From the NCBI GenBank assembly GCA_963840645.1, contig CAWIZL010000004.1, positions 16,574 through 80,573 on the forward strand: a stretch of DNA of 64,000 nt, read 5' to 3'. This DNA comes from Candidatus Doudnabacteria bacterium (GTDB lineage: Bacteria > Patescibacteriota > Doudnabacteria > UBA920 > VMFF01). Made by a program: the position numbers and the translations under genes. The notes under the pieces are model-generated. The model was not told the DNA's origin, did no database searches, and saw only the letters and a program-made list of their open reading frames with translations. Shown one piece after another: positions 5,376 to 54,463 of this stretch (positions within the stretch are counted from its first letter, which is position 1; each line of letters starts with the position of its first letter).

Positions 5376-5469
5376 TCCCCGAAGTTAACCCACTACTCGG
5401 GCATCGCGCCGGGGCCCTCCCGTTAGCCTGCTCTGTTTTTGACGCGCGGAGGCGGAAACCAGCACAGTA

Positions 5470-5550
5470 CCGCCGGTCTCCTGACCGGCTGTAGTGCGGG
5501 TCTCCAGACCCGCACTCGCCTCAGACCCGCACTCGCCTGTCGACCCTCAG
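5470..5550. repeat. interspersed hairpin repeat, family B variant (hairpin-TGTAG-hairpin)
   Basis: gccggtc-tcct-gaccggc, then TGTAG, then gtgcgggtc-tcca-gacccgcac. Same architecture as 37368..37424 and 52767..52822, with different but complementary stems. Confidence 0.65.
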
Positions 5551-7494: not shown

Positions 7495-9521
7495 ACCCGG
7501 GCCAAGTCCGGCTCGGGCGAAGCCCGAAAGAAGCCCGACGAGGACCCCGTCGGCAAGGTCTACGACGCACGGCTGATGCGGCGGCTGGGCCACTACGTGC
7601 GCCCCTACTGGCTGCAGGCCGCCATCGCCTCGCTCTCGGTCACGCTCAAGTCCCTCTGCGACGTCGCCGGGCCCATCCTGGTGATGGTGGCCGTCGACCG
7701 CTATCTCGCACCGGACGCCGCCGACGCAAGATGCCTCGAACGCCGTCGCGCATTGGGTCGCCAATGCCAGCCCTCTCGCCCACATGCTTCCGCCGGATCC
7801 CGTCGCCGGCATAACGCGCCTCGCTGCCATCTACCTCGATCATGCTGGTTTCGGCCTATCTCTTCCAATTCGTCCAGGTCTACCTGATGCAGTGGATCGG
7901 CCAGAAGATCATGTTCGACCTGCGCCGCGATATTTTCCGCCACATGCAGCGCATGCACATGGGCTTCTTCGACATACATCCCGTCGGCCGTCTGGTCACG
8001 CGCCTCACGTCCGACGTGGACGCCGTCAACGAAATGTTCACCGACGGCGTTCTGGCCATCGTCAACGATTTCTTCATGCTCACCATCATGGCCGCGGTGA
8101 TGCTCGCTATCAGTTGGTGGCTGGCGCTGCTGGCCTTCGCGGTGCTGCCGCTGATTCTCATCGTCACGCGCATTTTTCGTCGATCCATGTCCGCGAAAGC
8201 TACCGCCGCGTGCGCACCGCCATTGCGCGCATCAACAGCTTCACCCAGGAACACATCTCCGGCATGAGCGTCGTGCAGCTCTTCAATCGCGAAGATCGCG
8301 CCTACAAGGACTTTGAAGCCGTCAACCGGCAGCACATGATCGCGTTCAAGGACACGATCTTTGCCTACGCGCTCTACTATCCGGCCGTCGATTTTCTTTC
8401 CTCCGTCGCCATCGCCCTGGTGGTGTGGCGCGGCGGCTTCGGCGTGCTGCACTGCCGCCCACCGTGACCATCGGCGTGCTCATCATGTTCACGCAGTTCT
8501 CGCTGCGCTTCTGGCGGCCGATCCAGGATCTGAGCGACAAGTACAACATCCTGCAAGCCGCGATGGCGGCCTGCGAGCGCATCTTCAAGCTGATGGATTC
8601 GGCGCCGGAGATTGTCAGCCCCGCGCATCCCGTAGCCGGCGACGGGTCGAATCGCATCGAATTCCGACACGTCTGGTTCACCTATCAGAAACTGCACCGA
8701 TGCGCAGAAGGCCGCCGTCGCAGCGGCGGCGCAAGGCGACCGGCAGGCGGCGCGGCCCTGGCCGCTCTGGATGACATCGAGTGGATTCTCAAAGACGTTT
8801 CCTTCACCATCGAGCCAGGCCAGACGGTGGCCATTGTCGGCCACACCGGGCGCGGCAAGACCACGCTCACCAGCCTGATGATGCGCTTTTACGAAGTCAC
8901 GGCCGGGCGCATTCTGATCGATGGCGTCGACCTGCGCGAGCATGATCTTGACCGCGCTGCGCCGCCACTTTGCCGTGGTGCTGCAGGATCCGTTCCTGTT
9001 TTCCGGCACCATCGGCGAAAACATCCGCCTCGGCAACGAGGAAATCACCGACGCGACGATGCGCCAGGCCGCGCGCGACGTCAACGTGCTCGACTTTATT
9101 GAGATCGCTGCCCCACAGCTTCGATGAGCCGGTGCGCGAGCGCGGCAATTCGCTCTCCACGGGCCAGAAGCAGCTCATCAACTTCGCCCGCGCGCTGGCC
9201 TACAATCCGCGCATTCTCATTCTCGACGAAGCCACATCGAGCGTCGACACCGACACCGAGCTTCGCATCCGCGGCGCCCTGGAGCGCATGGTCGAAGGGC
9301 CGCACCAGCGTGCTGATCGCGCACCGGCTGTCGACGGTGCAGCGGGCCGAAACCATCCTGGTGATGCACAAGGGACAGCTGCGCGAGATGGGCTCGCATC
9401 AGGAACTGCTCGCCGCAGCGCGGCCTTTACTGGAAGCTTTACCAGTTGCAGTACAAAGATCAGGAGACCGGCACTCTGGCACCGCCTGCGCAAGAGCCCT
9501 CCGCCGCCCCCGCGATGTGAA
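7454..9521 (+). pseudogene. MsbA/lipid A-export-like ABC transporter (fused permease + ATPase), multiply frame-disrupted as sequenced
   Basis: Homolog-like sequence hops through ORFs 7379, 7576, 7842, 7784, 8425, 8921, 8970 and 9124 (at least 8 frame changes). Motifs: KVYDARLMRRLGHYVRPYW, TM6 domain, Walker A GHTGRGKTT, signature LSTGQKQ, Walker [11 protein letters not shown]-loop LIAHRL. Ends ...[14 protein letters not shown] at 9521. Confidence 0.9.
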
Positions 9522-9639
9522 AAAGCTACCCCGTCGAGCAAGAATCGCTCGCTGGGGCTCCGGCATCGAACGAAGGACTAAGAAAGACATGGAACGAGGA
9601 GCAGGGAACTGATGTCTCAAATGCCCTGCGCCGTAGGCG

Positions 9640-9826
9640 CGTCGTTCGTTAGCCCCGCGCTTCAGCGTGGGGAAAGCGGATTGCGCAATCCCATCACGGA
9701 GTCCCGTAGGGACGGCGCTGATTCTGTTTTGAAAGGGCAGGACTTCAAAGCCTGCCCTGAGCGAAGTCGAAGGGTGCCACAAGGGAACAGAATCCTTCGG
9801 GCCTTTAGGCCCTGAGGGATGTTTGA
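9640..9826. repeat. composite cluster of hairpin repeats (family C copy fused to the family A core CCTGAGCGAAGTCGAAGG)
   Basis: agccccgcgcttcagcgtgggg, gtcccgtagggac, ttttgaaagggcagg..cctgccctgagcgaagtcgaaggg, gggcctttaggccctgagggatg. Track ORF 9612..9815 is composed entirely of this repeat material. Confidence 0.75.
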
Positions 9827-13606: not shown

Positions 13607-13946
13607 AAAATTCTCCTTTGTGGTGGCTCTAGCTGCCCTTGCACTCAATCCCTGGATCAGTCGAAGGGATCCCTGCTGCGGGAACCGCAATCATCTCTAT
13701 CGTAGCAGAGATGCGCAAAGAAAACCGTGGCTGCGAACACGGGTTGAATCGTTCTGTGTCGACGAGTCTTTCGCCAACGCAGCCCATTCCAAAATGAAAT
13801 AAATGGCTGAGGTCGAAGAACAACACTGCCCAGACGTATGCAATGCGCGACAAGTGCCAAGATATCAAAGGCTGAATGCCGGAAGATCGTACGTGGGCGT
13901 TTGCTGAGCCTAAGGTTATGAGTCTTAAAGTTCCGATAAATGCGCT

Positions 13947-14041
13947 GTCATCCTGAGCGAAGTTTGCCGCGCTCTTGCGGCAAACGGAGTCGAAAGCCTG
14001 CCCTGAGCGAAGATCGTAGGTGCGATCGTAGTCGAACGGGG
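13947..14041. repeat. family A hairpin repeat, two tandem units
   Basis: gtcatcctgagcgaag-[tttgccgc..gcggcaaa]-cggagtcgaaag followed by cctgccctgagcgaag-[atcgtagg..]-tcgaacgg. Confidence 0.8.
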
Positions 14042-14100
14042 ACTGCGGTTGTTTTTCGACGAACTTCAGGTTCACCAGACCAGGGTGGGGTCACTAAAGC

Positions 14101-37314: not shown

Positions 37315-37524
37315 CGCCGGTCTCCCGGCCGCGACCAAGTGCCGCCAACGCTGAGTCGAGGCCGCAGCTTTTGTAGCGCCGGCCTCCCGGCCGGCTATAC
37401 TGAGGCCTCCTGGCCCTCAGAGAACTTGCCATGCCGCGAAACTCCGGTTTTGAAAGGGCACGACTTCACTCGTGCCGTAAACGCCGCAGATAGAGCAAGG
37501 GCTTTAGCCGCTGAGGGATGCTTC
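37308..37524. repeat. cluster of family B (x2) and family C hairpin repeats
   Basis: tttgtagcgccggtctcccggcc (37308..37336); ttttgtagcgccggcctcccggccggc..ctgaggcctcctggccctcagag (37368..37424); ttttgaaagggcacgac..ctcgtgcc..gggctttagccgctgagggatg (37447..37524). Confidence 0.85.
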
Positions 37525-38991: not shown

Positions 38992-40158
38992 CTAGTTAGA
39001 TTTTTCCCTGCCTCGTCCCGCGAGCACTTGCTCGTAATAGCGCACATATCGCGGAACCACGAGGTTCGCGCAGAAGCGCTTCTTCGCAGTCTGGCGCGCG
39101 GCTTCGCGCATCGCTTCGAGTCGCGGCGGATCATTCAGCAGGCTCAGCGCGCCCGCAGCCATACCCTCCACATCGCCGACGGGGTAGAGCAGTCCGGTCA
39201 CGCCGTCGTCGATGAGTTCCGGAACGCCGCCGACGAGCGTGGCAATGGTGGGAACCTTGCAGGCCATGGCTTCAAGCGCCGCCAGGCCAAACGACTCCAG
39301 CTCGCTCGGCATCAGCAACAGGTCGGCCAGCGCAAGCAGTTCGCTCACGCGCTCCTGCTTGCCCAGGAAATGCACGCGGCTTTGAATGCCCAGGTCGTGC
39401 GCGAGCCATTCGGCGGAGGAGCGGTCTGGCCCGTCGCCCATCAGCACAAGTTGCGCCGGGCGCTCCTTCGCCACGCGCGCAAACATCTTCACCACATCGC
39501 ATACGCGCTTCACGGGACGGAAGTTCGAAAGATGCATCAGGATCGGCTCGTCGGGCGCCGCGAAGCGATGGCGCGCGCACTCCTTTTCCTTCTGCGCCTC
39601 GTCCTCGATCGGCTTGTACACATCGCAATTCACAAAATTCGTGATGGTCTCAATCGGCCGCGTAATGTCGAAGTCTTCGATAGTCTTTTCGCGCAGGTAA
39701 TTGGAGATGCTGGTCACTCCATCGCTTTCCTGGATGGCGTAGCGCGTGATGGGCAGATAGCTGCGGTCGAGTCCGACCAGCGTAATGTCGGTGCCGTGCA
39801 GCGTGGTCACGAAGGGCAGATGGCGGCCGCGCGTCGCCAGCATCTGGCGCGCCAGCAGCGCCGAAACCGAGTGCGGAATCGCATAGTGCACATGCAGCAG
39901 ATCGAGCCCGTAATACTCGGCCACCTCGGCCATGCGCGAGGCCAGCGCCAGATCGTACGGCGGAAACTCGAAAAGCGGATAGTTGGAGACGGGAACCTCG
40001 TGATAGAAGATCCCCTCGTCGCGCCCGTTCAGGCGGAATGGCTGCGAATACGAGATGAAGTGGATTTCGTGGCCGAGAGCGGCAAGCTCAATGCCCAGCT
40101 CCGTCGCGACAACGCCGGAGCCGCCGTAGGTCGGATAACACGTAATCCCGATGCGCAT
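38992..40158 (-). CDS. bshA: GT4 glycosyltransferase of the BshA type (N-acetyl-alpha-D-glucosaminyl L-malate synthase-like)
   Basis: 388-aa intact ORF. MRIGITCYPTYGGSGVVATELG..., PPYDLALASRMAEV, LHVHYAIPH, TTLHGTDIT, and C-terminal E..GLAALEAMAC..P closely follow the BshA pattern known from Bacillus. Confidence 0.8.
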   Translation of the reverse strand: MRIGITCYPTYGGSGVVATELGIELAALGHEIHFISYSQPFRLNGRDEGIFYHEVPVSNYPLFEFPPYDLALASRMAEVAEYYGLDLLHVHYAIPHSVSALLARQMLATRGRHLPFVTTLHGTDITLVGLDRSYLPITRYAIQESDGVTSISNYLREKTIEDFDITRPIETITNFVNCDVYKPIEDEAQKEKECARHRFAAPDEPILMHLSNFRPVKRVCDVVKMFARVAKERPAQLVLMGDGPDRSSAEWLAHDLGIQSRVHFLGKQERVSELLALADLLLMPSELESFGLAALEAMACKVPTIATLVGGVPELIDDGVTGLLYPVGDVEGMAAGALSLLNDPPRLEAMREAARQTAKKRFCANLVVPRYVRYYEQVLAGRGREKSN

Positions 40159-40242
40159 GGTGCCTCTTGATGTTCTATCTTCTGTTAATTTGCTGGGCAG
40201 GAATTCTAGTTTGCTAAATCAGAATTCCGCATCACAATGGAT

Positions 40243-40305
40243 TTGTCATCCTGAGCAGAGTCCCGGCGTGCCGGGAAGGAGCCGAAGGATCAGCGGTTGC
40301 TTTTC
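40243..40305. repeat. family A hairpin repeat
   Basis: ttgtcatcctgagcagag-[tcccggc gt gccggga]-aggagccgaaggatcagcggttgcttttc. Confidence 0.8.
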
Positions 40306-40373
40306 CACGGGCGTCAAGCTCACCACCCTAGGTTATGGACGCGCGCGGGTTAGCGCAAGATGCAAGGAAACAG

Positions 40374-41251
40374 TCAGTCAGTAGTGAGCGACTCAGCCGA
40401 CGGCGCGGCCGAAGCAGAAGTTTCGAGGTCGGCAAACGAAATGAGCTCGATGCCGGGAATCTCCGGGATTGCAGCCAGGGCCAGACGCTCGACGTCGCGC
40501 GAAGCGCGCAGCCGCGTGCGCACGCGCGCCAAGATCCGCGTCGTTGTAGCCGGGATGAGTAACCAGTTCCCATGTGCCGGCAGGAAGCTGATCGAGCAGG
40601 GAACGCAGCGCTGCCGCGTCGAGTGTGCCGGTGCCGGCCATAGCGATGGTTCCATCGGTCGTGATAAATCCCTCCTCTGCGATGATCCTGCGGGAGCGCG
40701 GCTCGAGCCGGCGCAGCGCCGCAACCTGTACCACGCGCGCCAATGGAGCGCCAGGCGTGGCGCGGACGGCCCATTCCGGCTCAAAAGGATTGCGCACCGC
40801 GCGAATCCCGCAGCGCGGGCCGCGCGCAGCACGGGACGAAGCACCGCGGAAACATGTGCGTGTGCTTGTGGGTGTCAATGTGCGTCAGGCGCACGCCGCG
40901 TTGCTGTAGAATGCGCGATCTGCGCCGCGGCTTCGGCCTCAATCTCGTCGGCGCGGATGCGGCCCGTAAAAAGCCGCAGCAGGAATGCCGCTGAGTGGAA
41001 TTCGGGAAATGCCCGGTCCGCGCATCGACAAGCGACGGAATCTTTGCCGGCGGAAGCACGGGGTCGCCATCGACCAGAACCACATGGCAGCCCACGCCGA
41101 GCGATCGGATGTTGCGCGCGCCAGCTCGATGGCTTCGTCTGTCGCGCCGGCGCGCGCCATCAGCGAAGTGCTGGTTACCAGGCCCGCAGCGATGCAACTC
41201 GACGATGGCCCGGTTGACTCCGGAAGTCAGCCCGAAATCGTCGGCGTTCAC
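40374..41251 (-). pseudogene. YdjC/ChbG-family carbohydrate deacetylase (HpnK-like), multiply frame-disrupted as sequenced
   Basis: (V)NADDFGLTSGVNRAIVELH, GVGCHVVLVDG, GVRLTHIDTHKHTHMFP, GTWELVTHPGY. Pieces in ORFs 40781, 40393 and 40374 (at least 3 frame changes). Confidence 0.8.
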
Positions 41252-41357
41252 GATGAGGCGGCCACGCGGCTGAGTTTATCAATGTGCGCCAGTTCATGCC
41301 TCCGGAGAGCGATCGCGCTGATATCATGAATGAAGGCCGCAATCCCACGCGCAGAGT

Positions 41358-41434
41358 GGGCGGTTAGCTCAGTTGGTTAGAGCGCCTGCCTTACAAGCAG
41401 GAAGTCCGGGGTTCGAGTCCCTGACCGCCCACCA
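41358..41434 (+). tRNA. tRNA-Val (anticodon TAC), CCA encoded
   Basis: Cloverleaf by hand: acceptor GGGCGGT/ACCGCCC, D-arm GCTC..GAGC, anticodon stem CCTGC/GCAGG with loop CTTACAA, T-arm CGGGG-TTCGAGT-CCCTG, discriminator A + CCA. Confidence 0.9.
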
Positions 41435-41527
41435 TGCATTGCATGCAGCAGCCGCTCGCTATTCGCTCGCAGGAGGTTTGAGACCTGCACCGCTCACTTT
41501 TTCTCCCGCCATTTTCCGTCCACAAAA

Positions 41528-41596
41528 TTGTCATCCTGAGCGGAGTTTGCCGCGCAGTTTGCGGCAAACGGAGTCGAAGGACCTGCGGCTGCTTTA
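41528..41596. repeat. family A hairpin repeat
   Basis: ttgtcatcctgagcggag-[tttgccgc gcagttt gcggcaaa]-cggagtcgaaggacctgcggctgcttt. Same orientation as the copy at 40243. Confidence 0.8.
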
Positions 41597-41748
41597 ACGA
41601 GCCTCAGATTTATCGCACGAATGAGGACGATCTTCTTCATTTCGCCGGCCTCCGCGCATGCGCATCCGGCCACTTCGGCAGCGTTGGCCGGCATCTTGGG
41701 CGATCATAGGAGAGGTGCGCGCGAGGAGCGAAGAGGAAGGGGAACGAT

Positions 41749-43136
41749 TTGCCGCCAGGCACAAAAAAATCGGTGATCGTGGTCGGCGGAGGCGTGGCCG
41801 GCATGAGCGCGGCCTGCGCGCTGGCCGAGGCCGGGCTCCGCGTCCAAGCTCGTCGAGCGCCGCGGCTACCTGGGCGGCCGGGCCAGCTCCTATCGGCATC
41901 CCGGCGTGGATGAGGTCATCGACAACTGCCAGCACGTGCTCTTCGGCTGCTGCACCAATCTCATTGGTTTTTACCAGCGCATCGGCGTCGCGGATCAAAT
42001 CCACTGGACGCACACCATGACCATGATCGAGCCGGGTGGCCAGCGACTCGCTTGCTCGGCCCAGTTGGTTGCCGGCTCCGCTGCATGGTCTGCCCAGCCT
42101 GCTTGCGGCGAAGGCTCTCACAGCGCGGAGACAAAATAGCCCTGACGCGCGCCTTTCGTGCGTTCATGCGGCCGGTCGCGCCGGAGTCGGCCGAGACCCT
42201 GGGCGACATGGCTCCGGCTGAACGGGCAGACGCAGGGCGCGATCGACCGTTTCTGGCGGCTTGGTGATTGCGAGCGCGCTCAATGCCGATGTGGACGAGA
42301 TCGCCCTGCCCTATGCGGCGAAGGTGATCCGCGAATTGTTTCTGAACTCGGCCGAGGCGGGCAGCGATGGGCATGAGCACCGTGCCGTTGAGCGAGCTGT
42401 ACGCCGGCGCGGAGCAATATCTTGCGCGAACGTGGCGGCGAGGTGGTCTTCAGCGCTGAGCGTGGAAGGTGCAGAGTGGGATGAGGAGACGTCGCAGTGG
42501 ACGCTGGCAACGCGTGCGGGCGCGCTGGTGGCGGATTACCTGGTGCTGGCGCTTGCCGTTTGAGGCGACGGCGAAATCTGCTGCCGCAGATGCCGCCAGC
42601 CGACGGCGTCGAGCCCCTCGCCGCACAAATCGAACGGCAAGAGCACGGGCCCATCTGCAGCGTGCATCTCTGGTTCGACCGCGAAATTACGGATCTCGAA
42701 CACGCCGTGTTGCTCGACCGCGAAATTCACTGGATGTACAACAAGAGCCGCCTGCAGCCGTGCGCGCAGGACGAAGGGGAGTTACATCGAGCTGGTGGTG
42801 AGCGCTTCGCACAAGTTTGCCGCGCTCAGCCGCGAAGAGGCGATTGATCTGGCCGTGCGCGAACTGGCGGAGTTTTTCCCGGCCGTCAACGCGGCGAAGC
42901 TGGAAAAAGCTGCGCTGGTGAAAGAAGTCCGCGCGACGTTCACCGTGCCGCCGGGAATTGACGCGGCGCGGCCCGGCTCCATTTCGCCGTGGCCGAACTG
43001 CGTGCTGGCAGGTGACTGGATTCGGACCGGCTGGCCCTCCACGATGGAGAGCGCAGCGCGCAGCGGCCATCTGGCGGCGGAGGCAGTGTGCGCCGCCGTC
43101 GGCGCACCCCGCAGAAGTTCCTCGACCCCGACTTGA
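41749..43136 (+). pseudogene. FAD-dependent amine-oxidase/desaturase family protein, HpnE (hydroxysqualene dehydroxylase)-like, multiply frame-disrupted as sequenced
   Basis: Dinucleotide fold KKSVIVVGGGVAGMSAACALAEAGLRV..VERRGYLGGRA, then IDNCQHVLFGCCTNLIGFYQRIG and C-terminal LAGDWIRTGWPSTMESAARSG. At least 7 frame changes. C-terminal end approximate. Confidence 0.7.
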
Positions 43137-52329: not shown

Positions 52330-52720
52330 ATGACCGCTCCCCGCTACACCGACGAGCACGCAAAAGCCGGCCTGGACTTCGACTTTCCCCCCATCGAGAC
52401 CTGGCAAAATCAGTTTCCCGGTTACGAGATTCAGATCGACGATCCGGAGCTGACTTCCGTTTGCCCGAAAACCGGCCTGCCCGACTTCGGCGTGCTCACC
52501 ATCCGCTACATGCCGCAGAGAGCGCTGCCTCGAACTGAAATCGCTCAAAGAATATCTCTTCAGCTACCGCAACCTAGGCATTTTTCAGGAAAATATCGTC
52601 AACCAGGTTCTGGAAGATATCGTGAAGGCCTGCGATCCCGTGTGGGCCGTAGTAAAAGGCGAGTTCCGCCCCCGCGGCGGCATCGGCACCACCGTAGAAG
52701 CGCGCTGGCCGCGGCCGTAG
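52330..52720 (+). pseudogene. queF: NADPH-dependent 7-cyano-7-deazaguanine reductase (unimodular QueF), one frame change as sequenced
   Basis: ..ELTSVCPKTGLPDFGVLTIRYMP.. then, after a shift near 52525, (C)LELKSLKEYLFSYRNLGIFQENIVNQVLEDIV..RGGIGTTVEARWPRP* (TAG 52718..52720). Confidence 0.9.
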
Positions 52721-52766
52721 TTTTTGAAGAAACCTACTTCAGCGCAAGTTCCGCTGCTGGCCCCGC

Positions 52767-52822
52767 ATTTGTAGCGCCGGCCTCCCGGCCGGCTGTACTG
52801 AGGACCTCCCGGCCCTCAGAGC
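52767..52822. repeat. family B hairpin repeat
   Basis: atttgtagcgccggcctcccggccggctgtactgaggacctcccggccctcagagcc, near-identical to 37368..37424. Confidence 0.85.
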
Positions 52823-52968
52823 CCCGTCGCTCCCTCGCTCACTGTTTTCTTGTTCCCCTGGTCCCTTGTTCCCTCGGTCCCTGTTTCTGTGGTATTCCTT
52901 GGACTTCGCGAAGCTCTCAACCGGACTTCAGACCCTTGCCAACTTCTCTCCAATCGCTGCGCCCCCGC

Positions 52969-54234
52969 ATGAATCCCGCTCTGGGAACATTTCTGCTGCT
53001 GATCGCGCTCAATCTGCTCAATTACCTCGATCGCTACATCCTCCCCGGTGCGCAGCCACTCGTCCAGAAAGAGTTCAGCGCAACCGACCAGCAAATGGGC
53101 GCGCTCACCACAGCATTCTTCCTCACCTACATGATCTGTGCGCCGCTCAGCGGTTGGCTGGGCGACTGGTTTCGCCGCAAGCCGCTCATCATCACCGGCG
53201 CGATTCTCTGGAGCCTGGCCACGCTCGGTACTGCCTTTGTGCACACCTACTTGAGCCTCTACACCTGGCGCGCGCTGGTTGGCGTAGGCGAGGCCACCTT
53301 CGGCATCTACGCCCCCGCCGTGCTCGCAGATTTCTATCCGGAGCGCGACCGCAACCGCATCCTCTCCATCTTCTATCTGGCCATTCCCGTAGGCGCGGCA
53401 TTCGGCTATCTTGCGGGCGGGGAACTGGGCAGCCTGTGGGGATGGCGTCGGCCCTTTCTCCTCTGCGCCATCCCCGGCCTGATCATCGCCGGGCTCTACG
53501 GCGTGTGGGGCCGCGAGCCGGAACGCGGCGCGAAGGACCATCGCGAGAAGCAGGCCAGAACGCCAGCTCAGACTCATTCTAGAGATGTATCTCCGAAAGC
53601 GCTGCTCAACTTCATCTGGGAGCGCCGCAAAATCCTCATGAACCCGGCCTTCCTCGCCTCGACCTTTAGCCTGGCCGCCATCACCTTCGCGCTGGGTGGA
53701 ATCTCCGCCTGGGTGCCCACGTTTCTGCACCGCGTCAACGGCCTCTCCGTGGCCAATGCCAGCCTCGTGGTCGGCGCCATTACCGTCATCGACGGCATTG
53801 GCGGCACCATTACCGGCGGTTGGATCGCGCACCGCTGGCAGCGCACCAACCACCGCGCCCTCTACCTGGTTTCGTTCTGGAGCGTCGTTCTCACCATCCC
53901 CTTCGGCGCTCTGGTTTTCTTCGGACCCCACTCAACCACCATTCCCGCGCTCTTTTGCGCCGAGTTCTTCATCTTTTTGAATACTGGCCCGCTCAATGCC
54001 GCCATCGTCAACTCGGTCGAGGGAGCCGTACGCGCCACGGCAATCTCCATCAATCTCTTCTGCATCCACGCCTTCGGCGACACCTTCTCGCCGCAGATCA
54101 TCGGCGCCATCAGCGACCACTCAACCCTGAGCATCGGCCTCGGCGCGACCCTGGTTTCGCTCGTCATCGCCTGCTGCATCCTCTGGTACGGCGCGCGCTT
54201 CGCCCCGCCATACTACGAAGCCCAGGCACCCTAG
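52969..54234 (+). CDS. MFS transporter (Spinster-like)
   Basis: Internal ATG 52969 of track ORF 52330..54234. MNPALGTFLLLIALNLLNYLDRYIL, MFS motif GWLGDWFRRKP, 12 predicted TM segments. Confidence 0.85.
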   Translation: MNPALGTFLLLIALNLLNYLDRYILPGAQPLVQKEFSATDQQMGALTTAFFLTYMICAPLSGWLGDWFRRKPLIITGAILWSLATLGTAFVHTYLSLYTWRALVGVGEATFGIYAPAVLADFYPERDRNRILSIFYLAIPVGAAFGYLAGGELGSLWGWRRPFLLCAIPGLIIAGLYGVWGREPERGAKDHREKQARTPAQTHSRDVSPKALLNFIWERRKILMNPAFLASTFSLAAITFALGGISAWVPTFLHRVNGLSVANASLVVGAITVIDGIGGTITGGWIAHRWQRTNHRALYLVSFWSVVLTIPFGALVFFGPHSTTIPALFCAEFFIFLNTGPLNAAIVNSVEGAVRATAISINLFCIHAFGDTFSPQIIGAISDHSTLSIGLGATLVSLVIACCILWYGARFAPPYYEAQAP

Positions 54235-54393: not shown

Positions 54394-54463
54394 TTGTCAT
54401 CCTGAGCGAGGTTGGGAGCGTCCTTTGCTCCCAACGGAGTCGAAGGATCTGCGGTTGCTTTTC
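54394..54463. repeat. family A hairpin repeat
   Basis: ttgtcatcctgagcgagg-[ttgggagc gtccttt gctcccaa]-cggagtcgaaggatctgcggttgcttttcg. Confidence 0.8.

Follow-up and report, generated by a model that had tools for sequence, protein, structure and literature searches.

The window analysed here, meaning the whole 64-kb stretch of contig CAWIZL010000004.1 (positions 16,574 to 80,573 of the forward strand; about 60% G+C), carries a short interspersed repeat, Family A, in which conserved flanks enclose a hairpin of variable sequence. Four full copies (starting at 13946, 40244, 41529 and 54395) and two core fragments (9755 and 14002) were found, all on the + strand, and the exact 12-mer GTCATCCTGAGC occurs four times in the window, on the + strand every time. 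Two of the full copies are located within the gene group amine oxidase / tRNA-Val / ydjC / bshA, whose order is kept in the related loci L241/L242 and L245/L246 (BshA about 90% identical). In the window this group includes a bshA glycosyltransferase gene (38992..40158, - strand), 91% identical to BshA of Terracidiphilus-like Acidobacteriaceae, a ydjC-family gene (40374..41251, - strand; PF04794, orthologues of 287-295 aa) that is split by a frameshift into two overlapping open reading frames (ORFs), and a tRNA-Val gene (41358..41431, + strand; Rfam RF00005, 74.9 bits), which is kept in L241 and L245. The 40244 copy lies between the start of bshA (40158) and the end of ydjC (about 40374), antisense to the ydjC-bshA operon, and the 41529 copy starts 98 nt past tRNA-Val. 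The 54395 copy is sited between convergent genes.

The constant shell of Family A is TGTCATCCTGAGC-GNAG-(variable hairpin)-C-GNAG-T-CGAAGGAYCTGCGGTT, and its long form can be written as tGTCATCCTGAGC-GNAG-(perfect variable hairpin)-C-GNAG-T-CGAAGGAYC-TGCGGTTGCTTTT. The 5' tag TGTCAT is invariant, the stem ATCCT/AGGAT is followed by a C, and the length is 60-70 nt. A covariance model was built from 32 Family A copies and used to search the window, where it returned four strong copies (E 1e-15 to 2e-28) and two weak partial matches; nothing else was detected in the 64 kb at E <0.1, the other 32 matches, on both strands, having E >=0.36. In the first copy (40244..40305, + strand; 54 bits, E 2e-17) the tag TGTCAT (40244-40249) precedes the inner arms TCCCGGC (40261-40267) and GCCGGGA (40270-40276), which are separated by the loop GT and followed by AGGAGCCGAAGGATCAGCGGTTGCTTTT. 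The second (41529..41597, + strand; 83 bits, E 6e-28) and third (54395..54463, + strand; 84 bits, E 2e-28) copies carry the inner hairpins TTTGCCGC-GCAGTTT-GCGGCAAA and TTGGGAGC-GTCCTTT-GCTCCCAA, respectively. The fourth (13946..14006, + strand; 50 bits, E 1e-15; inner hairpin TTTGCCGC-GCTCTT-GCGGCAAA) is a composite, since its degraded 3' side (CGAAAGCCTGC) runs into a second unit without the TGTCAT tag (14002..14056, + strand; CCTGAGCGAAG-ATCGTAGGTGCGATCGTAG-TCGAACGGGGACTGCGGTTGTTTTT), partially matched by the model at 14007-14035 (13 bits, E 0.02). The remaining unit (9755..9774, + strand; 12.5 bits, E 0.05) is a minimal core with no inserted hairpin (CCCTGAGCGAAGTCGAAGGG). This core (CCTGAGCGAAGTCGAAGGG), which has neither the TGTCAT tag nor the CTGCGGTT tail, has 20 nt in common with the 14002 unit (AAAGCCTGCCCTGAGCGAAG) and is probably a degraded or partial unit. 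A first-pass annotation of the window had listed five copies of Family A. The repeats are real, and the stems that it quoted are correct and perfectly paired when the sequence is read directly; the count, by contrast, becomes four full copies and two core fragments, with the 13946 copy composite. Its copy at 9760, described as flanks fused without a hairpin, indeed has no inserted hairpin, but it is the bare core only.

The variable hairpin keeps its pairing while its sequence changes. Standard pairs were found in 93.5% of the pair cells of the 32-copy alignment, and 9/9 inner-stem pairs were changed on both sides. Double-change cells numbered 62, against about 15 in shuffles, and none of 500 shuffles reached the observed value; when the partner was slid by 1-3 columns as a control in the same 32 copies, pairing fell to 32-45%. 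This excess of double changes upholds the proposal of the first-pass annotation that the variation preserves structure and is not simple decay. Stem pairs were 770 Watson-Crick, 13 G.T, 5 A.C and 15 other, and the stems TTTGCCGC, TTTGGCGC, CTTGGCGC, ATTGGCGC, TTCGGCGC, ATGGGCGC and TTGGGAGC each occur with the matching 3' arm. A reduction of the copies to a few identical subfamilies had been named as something that would weaken the idea; instead, the hairpin classes recur across species and are joined by many compensatory intermediates. In a second alignment of 150 copies, collected near the nuclease genes (ssn) described below, 14/16 pairs covary, outer stem included, although this alignment was fitted to the covariance model and is biased towards the structure. 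The compensatory changes of the outer stem in these 150 copies were U-A to C-G (14 times), C-G to U-A (5 times) and G-C to C-G (6 times). As for the purine-rich part of the shell, 5'-UGAG/CGAA-3' and C-GNA-G facing C-GNA-G may form sheared G.A pairs, and would do so on this strand only.

The motif is widespread outside the window. Scanning of viral contigs (IMG/VR) for CATCCTGAGC-N(4-34)-CGAAGGA gave at least 120 loci (L001-L120), and the viral or proviral contigs listed contain a minimal form, GTCATCCTGAGC-GNAG-CGAAGGATC, together with longer forms that have an apical hairpin or a second (nested) unit. No ssn gene was detected in the DNA fetched around the listed viral-contig loci. A genome scan for the tailed form gave at least 120 loci (L121-L240), nearly all of them from Acidobacteriaceae among the matches listed, namely Terracidiphilus, Granulicella, Edaphobacter and KBS 146. 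The listed loci, which were chosen for carrying a copy, contain 177 copies in 0.97 Mb, compared with six units in the 64-kb window, and 19/177 overlap a called gene. In a profile of 176 copies, T/G/T was found at -3..-1 and YCTGCGGTT at +1..+9. The conserved unit is slightly wider than the flanks of the first-pass annotation. Conservation is strong from TGT to YCTGCGGTT, and two weakly conserved parts adjoin it: the A/C-rich positions -15..-6 and GCTTTT, which reaches to +15. A literature search with the sequence string of the repeat matched only primers, and no Rfam family matches Family A, whether the limit is set at the gathering score or relaxed to E = 10.

The trail to an associated gene was a small ORF located between the repeat copies of a tandem array in locus L228. 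A GIY-YIG ORF with the motifs YYVY..LYIG..REKQLKGW was found by tblastn and jackhmmer in 5 of the 120 listed Acidobacteriaceae loci, which had been fetched through the repeat. In all five a sense copy is present upstream, and 37-76 nt separate its 3' edge from the first codon matched to the protein; in the four complete loci (4/4) an inverted copy follows 24-69 nt past the end of the match. To remove ascertainment by the repeat, a set of 80 metagenome loci was collected by way of the protein only. In these loci a sense copy was present at <=300 nt upstream in 51/76 cases and an inverted copy downstream in 53/78; taking the best 150 covariance-model matches only, the values were 43/75 upstream, 50/77 downstream and 31/72 (43%) on both sides. 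The two modules of one element often carry an identical inner hairpin, and they vary together, outer stem included (CCT/AGG, CCC/GGG, GCT/AGC, CTT/AAG).

The flanked protein has about 100 aa and one domain, GIY-YIG (PF01541, E 1e-11 to 3e-15, the sole domain above the cut-off). An architecture of this kind has been described for ssnA, whose product is a single-domain GIY-YIG protein of 94 aa, and which is flanked by a repeat named NTS in Neisseria (CGTCATTCCCGCGMAVGCGGGAATCYRG) and by its relatives in other phyla, named SRMs (Chenal et al., Nat Commun 2025, PMC11893778). The acidobacterial protein matched an N. gonorrhoeae locus with 52% identity (tblastn, E 6e-20), a value well below the E < 1e-10 by which Ssn homologues were recognised in PMC11893778. 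This locus codes for a 94-aa protein (MQPAVYILASQRNGTLYIGV...) with Y6 and Y17 as in PMC11893778, and sits among canonical NTS copies (CGTCATTCCCGCGCAGGCGGGAATCTAG). In direct comparison by blastp, the acidobacterial nuclease and Neisseria SsnA were 49-53% identical over 85-86 aa (E 4e-28 to 1e-31). No match to the acidobacterial nuclease was obtained in NCBIfam.

The published properties of SsnA fit Family A. SsnA binds the hairpin as single-stranded DNA (ssDNA) only, with no binding of double-stranded DNA (dsDNA) or RNA; it cuts a few nt upstream of the repeat and leaves the reverse strand uncut (PMC11893778). Cutting depends chiefly on the three nt that precede the palindrome and binding chiefly on the C that follows it, and the loop can be swapped for unpaired or complementary extensions (PMC11893778). 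Family A shares with NTS/SRM an oriented hairpin with a (C/T)GTCAT 5' tag, a stem TCC...GGA and ATC-Y-N-B after it. Family A may, like NTS/SRM, number hundreds of copies that lie mostly between genes, and both repeats are found as inverted copies on either side of a single-domain GIY-YIG gene of about 94-115 aa. Repeats on both sides were observed for 43% of the genes in the present loci, close to the 42% reported for SRMs, of which at least one lies near 71% of the Ssn homologues (PMC11893778). The published SRM search pattern, HGTCWYN(0-2)YYVSBRHN(0-5)WNVSBRGN(0-2)RNCYNB, was built from 29 genomes (PMC11893778), and at its ends TGTCAT fits HGTCWY and GGATCTGC fits G-RNCYNB. We consider it highly probable that Family A is the acidobacterial (Terracidiphilus-like, Acidobacteriaceae) form of the SRM/NTS repeat, that is, an ssDNA hairpin read by a GIY-YIG nuclease of the Ssn family.

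Several observations weigh against this assignment. The whole SRM pattern matches 0/157 Family A copies, although it does match the canonical NTS, and only its two ends fit; the pattern is, for its part, an operational search tool and not a definition of the family. Canonical repeats have lengths of 20-50 nt and loops of 0-5 nt, whereas Family A is 60-70 nt long and bears a variable hairpin of 16-40 nt, or a nested unit, at its apex. Its inner palindrome contains G.A mismatches and inserts of up to 40 nt, its lower stem has conserved purine-rich mismatches (GAGC-GNAG / C-GNAG-T-CGA), and it carries an extra tail, CTGCGGTTGCTTTT. When the NTS stem was altered with the hairpin kept, the activity of the Neisseria enzyme was abolished (PMC11893778), and therefore free variation is to be expected for the apical part only. 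The best solved structure by sequence for the nuclease is a UPF0213 protein (1zg2, E 0.004). Finally, no ssn gene was found in the 64-kb window by homology search with the nuclease, so that the enzyme cognate to these copies was not encountered; such a gene would be expected elsewhere in the genome. A weak tblastn match of the nuclease at 7917-7997 of the window corresponds to an ABC-transporter membrane domain and is no GIY-YIG protein. Since the ends are shared and the whole pattern is matched by none of the copies, Family A was filed as a loop-extended, G.A-containing SRM variant. The SRM/Ssn system has been known since 2025, and Family A is a variant of it outside the published search pattern. 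Acidobacteria are not mentioned in the main text of PMC11893778.

Related arrangements were also seen in other loci. Cyanobacteria and many viral contigs from soil also carry the shell GTCAT[CT]CTGAG...CGAAG[AG]ATC. A Planktothrix ssn homologue is flanked by TGTCATTCTGAGTGAAACGAAGAATCTC, and shells of the Family A type thus occur outside Acidobacteria as well. On a Planktothrix agardhii plasmid (NZ_LR882964.1, 18.2-19.7 kb; L328) an ssn homologue accompanied by SRM-like repeats of its own was located between a restriction-modification gene of the MmeI type and the DISARM gene drmA, a defence-gene neighbourhood. Tandem SRM arrays were observed at 840-1870 of L228, with periods of 62 and 86 nt and adjoining the ssn gene, and at 970-1405 of L272, with a period of 79 nt and six units.

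The orientation of the copies was then compared with that of genes and with strand composition. The first-pass annotation had asked for the strand bias of the repeats relative to flanking genes, and in this respect the orientation proved to be about random: among 134 classifiable copies, 51 were tandem-sense, 36 tandem-antisense, 28 convergent and 19 divergent, which is near the background proportions. Strand composition gave a very different result. In the 8-kb Acidobacteriaceae loci (L121-L240) the compositional asymmetry of the strands is exceptionally strong: the mean |skew| of GC was 0.115, with values up to 0.33, and genes on the G-rich strand had a third-position skew of +0.28, against -0.42 for those on the C-rich strand. 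The top strand of the repeat was the C-rich strand for 148/177 copies (r = -0.74) and for 98/121 when one copy per locus was taken. Where |skew| was > 0.1, this proportion rose to 93/94 for the pattern matches and 56/56 for the covariance-model matches, and it was 21/21 for those covariance-model matches that lie outside the scan pattern. The independent viral-contig loci gave 48/62 overall and 23/24 at |skew| > 0.1. In a regression the coefficient was -0.107 for copy orientation and -0.024 for gene orientation; therefore, gene direction explains little of the strand bias. Apparently 59% of the coding bases were on the C-rich strand, a value that is not trusted, as the gene caller, for which called genes served as training set and L246 as check, may under-call genes on G-rich strands. 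No such bias was detected in a 300-kb sample of the N. gonorrhoeae chromosome, where 15 copies were on the G-rich and 8 on the C-rich strand.

In other bacteria the G-rich strand is the leading strand. Among housekeeping genes taken as leading-strand markers, only dnaK was found, in L145, and it was on the G-rich strand. Tentatively, and at somewhat less than an even chance in our estimation, the cleavable strand would be nearly confined to the C-rich strand and, if the G-rich strand is the leading one, would lie on the leading-strand template, with Ssn meeting its repeats at replication forks. If this is true, the cleavable strand is kept off the lagging-strand template, the ssDNA exposed at the fork. 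The bias could then have arisen from purging of the copies in the exposed orientation (self-restriction avoidance) or from strand-specific insertion into fork ssDNA, as in IS200/IS605. Neither skew nor replication strands are mentioned in the Ssn paper (PMC11893778).

A mechanism can be proposed on this basis for the variable hairpin. The top strand would fold once the DNA becomes single-stranded, and the constant shell would form the base of the hairpin, composed of the TGTCAT tag, the stem ATCCT/AGGAT, the purine-rich GAGC-GNAG / C-GNAG-T-CGA and the C that follows the stem. This base would be read by the nuclease, which would cut a few nt upstream, the apical part being needed only to join the two halves of the shell. 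The inner stem would be free to take any sequence as long as it is paired, because the enzyme would read the base and the apex would merely hold the halves together. By analogy with the Neisseria and Wolbachia enzymes, the acidobacterial Ssn is expected to act on ssDNA only, on one strand and with any loop. In the relatives the module occurs as inverted repeats around the ssn gene, a layout reminiscent of an insertion sequence; the window copies are solo modules, comparable to REP sequences in relation to the RAYT transposase. Pairing would persist because copies unable to fold would be neither recognised nor propagated; it could be kept by propagation of foldable copies at the level of the element, as has been argued for REPINs, or by use of the sites by the host. 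The first-pass annotation had also proposed a double-stranded cruciform, which is unlikely because dsDNA is no substrate of Ssn and because only one strand has the purine-rich mismatches. Its further suggestion that the repeat is not just a mobile element is doubtful, given that the repeat-gene-repeat arrangement resembles an insertion sequence and that relatives differ in the copies they carry.

The same covariation might also be attributed to selection of the pairing on a transcript, the repeat being then a structured RNA such as a terminator, a stabiliser of 3' untranslated regions like E. coli REP, a small RNA or a cis-regulator. In addition to the covariation itself, the excess of G.T over A.C among the stem mismatches (13 vs 5), the T-rich tail after the unit, the fact that 3/5 window sites follow a + strand gene or tRNA, and a mild sense excess in tandem intergenic regions (51 vs 36) would fit a transcript. 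However, the copies occupy every intergenic class about as the background does, divergent regions included (19/134), 36 of them are antisense in tandem regions, and their orientation tracks strand composition and not genes (-0.107 vs -0.024). The T run starts about 10 nt past the stem, which is therefore not the geometry of an intrinsic terminator. Single-sequence RNA folds were unremarkable (z +0.1 to -2.3), and over this range the folding energies, of RNA as of DNA, are uninformative. The 40244 copy being antisense within the ydjC-bshA operon, Rfam containing no match even at E up to 10, and SsnA not binding RNA (PMC11893778), the selection on a folded RNA suggested in the first-pass annotation is not supported, and we judge a function in RNA to be very improbable. 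A different origin, from REP/REPIN elements mobilised on the ssDNA of the replication fork by a Y1 (HUH) RAYT or an IS200/IS605-like transposase, would account for hairpins with a conserved 5' tag and for a strong replication-strand bias, which resembles that given for IS200/IS605 (PMC6006769). RAYT genes exist in Acidobacteria (PMC3733652), and GTAG-tagged repeats, described below as Family B, lie in the same window. Nevertheless, the tag of Family A is TGTC and not GTAG, the gene that it flanks codes for a GIY-YIG nuclease and not a Y1 transposase, and no Y1 gene was seen adjoining any copy, no dedicated Y1 search having been made; we hold this origin to be very unlikely too.

The two same-orientation copies that lie 1.2 kb apart around ydjC and tRNA-Val had been presented in the first-pass annotation as bracketing that segment, and might be taken for the ends of a composite or mobile unit carrying both genes, or for miniature elements (MITEs) of a conventional DDE transposon. 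The bracketing is coincidental, because the gene order is conserved in relatives (L241/L242 and L245/L246) that lack both copies. In L241 and L245 the orthologous spacer has no counterpart of the 40244 copy, and the 41529 copy is likewise missing from the orthologous region of both, though tRNA-Val is kept there. Moreover, the copies are in direct orientation, long terminal inverted repeats are lacking, and the left and right GNAG boxes differ in base preference, all of which makes a unit of this kind extremely improbable. From the comparison of these sequences, the 40244 and 41529 copies are lineage-specific gains in neighbouring spacers and not the ends of one unit.

Other candidates were tried and rejected. 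An intrinsic terminator or a REP-like mRNA stabiliser was ruled out by the statistics of orientation and context. Ribozymes and RNA motifs (hammerhead, k-turn, box C/D, sarcin-ricin-like) were considered on account of the CUGA/GA content; their cores do not fit, and there is no Rfam match. The GNAG boxes do not behave as a target-site duplication, the left one being GAAG/GGAG and the right one GGAG/GCAG/GAAG/GTAG. Hairpin nicking (P-nucleotide-like) as a source of the palindromes could not give rise to stems of unrelated sequence, and no evidence supports it. Integron attC sites (RYYYAAC...GTTRRRY, in cassette arrays) were also discarded, as the ends of Family A are TGTCAT...GGATC, with no GTTRRRY, and the copies are scattered and form no arrays.

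The assignment of Family A to the SRM repeats leaves clear likenesses to other known systems. Like REP/REPIN-RAYT systems (REPtrons) and BIMEs, it consists of short hairpins with a conserved unpaired tag and compensatory stem variation between subfamilies, its solo copies are far more numerous than the gene, inverted copies lie on either side of that gene, and the enzyme would likewise act on ssDNA hairpins. It differs from them in having a GIY-YIG enzyme instead of a Y1 HUH transposase, a TGTC tag instead of GTAG, and copies that are mostly single and co-oriented, not inverted doublets. IS200/IS605 elements share with SRMs the subterminal hairpins recognised on one strand as ssDNA and, perhaps, the coupling of orientation to the direction of replication. 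Their catalytic protein is different, and the likeness to SRM/Ssn is one of hairpin and orientation, not of demonstrated transposition; if the G-rich strand is the leading one, the top strand of the SRM is on the leading-strand template, the opposite of the top strand of IS608. Palindromic repeats with a CGTC tag, reported by Di Nocera et al. (2013) to be without a dedicated transposase (PMC3733652), have in common with Family A a tag ending in GTC, followed by a stem and a short conserved 3' tail, whereas their stems are of 8-9 bp with loops of 4-5 nt, in contrast to the TGTC tag and two-tier stem of Family A. Because the Neisseria NTS begins with CGTCAT, the CGTC-tagged repeats and NTS/SRM probably form one superfamily, and the former may also be Ssn-associated.

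A second type of repeat, Family B, had been said to behave in the same way, and this is real: the window contains three GTAG/GTAC-tagged double hairpins with compensatory differences between their stems. The copy at 37373..37423 (+ strand) reads GTAG-CGCCGGCC-tccc-GGCCGGC-T-GTAC-TGAGGCC-tcc-TGGCCCTCAG, and that at 52771..52822 (+ strand), which falls within a long ORF call (52330-54234), is near-identical to it. In the copy at 5467..5516 (+ strand) the stems differ yet pair, as GTAC-CGCCGGTC..GACCGGC and GTAG-TGCGGGTC..GACCCGCA. These elements look like classical REP/BIME elements.

Additionally, some other features of the window were recorded. Several genes are broken by frameshifts when compared with intact orthologues, among them ydjC (40374-41251), the amine oxidase gene (about 41650-43100), an ABC-transporter gene (7842-8267) and others, which indicates either an assembly with many indel errors or pseudogenes. 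Just upstream of bshA, at about 40172-40212, there is a palindrome with 8-bp arms (GGAATTCT..AGAATTCC) around TTAGCAAAC, belonging to a segment of about 150 nt that is missing from the orthologous spacer in L241 and L245. An Acido-Lenti-1 RNA (RF01687) was detected at 9627-9672 on the - strand (40.4 bits, gathering score 37), about 80 nt from the 9755 core, in keeping with the acidobacterial affinity of the BshA protein.

With Family A assigned to a recently described DNA system, this covarying "RNA" drops out as a riboregulator worth pursuing. The published SRM pattern is too narrow and misses a very abundant clade, and therefore the current Ssn/SRM censuses are underestimates. The natural variation of the loop mirrors the result obtained in vitro, in which the substrate loop could be replaced by arbitrary paired extensions, and is useful for the design of a programmable ssDNA cutter; if the proposed reading is true, the loop-extended, nestable modules are a natural library of "split" Ssn substrates. 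The strand bias, which is near-absolute, offers a clue to the role of Ssn outside the naturally transformable Neisseria.

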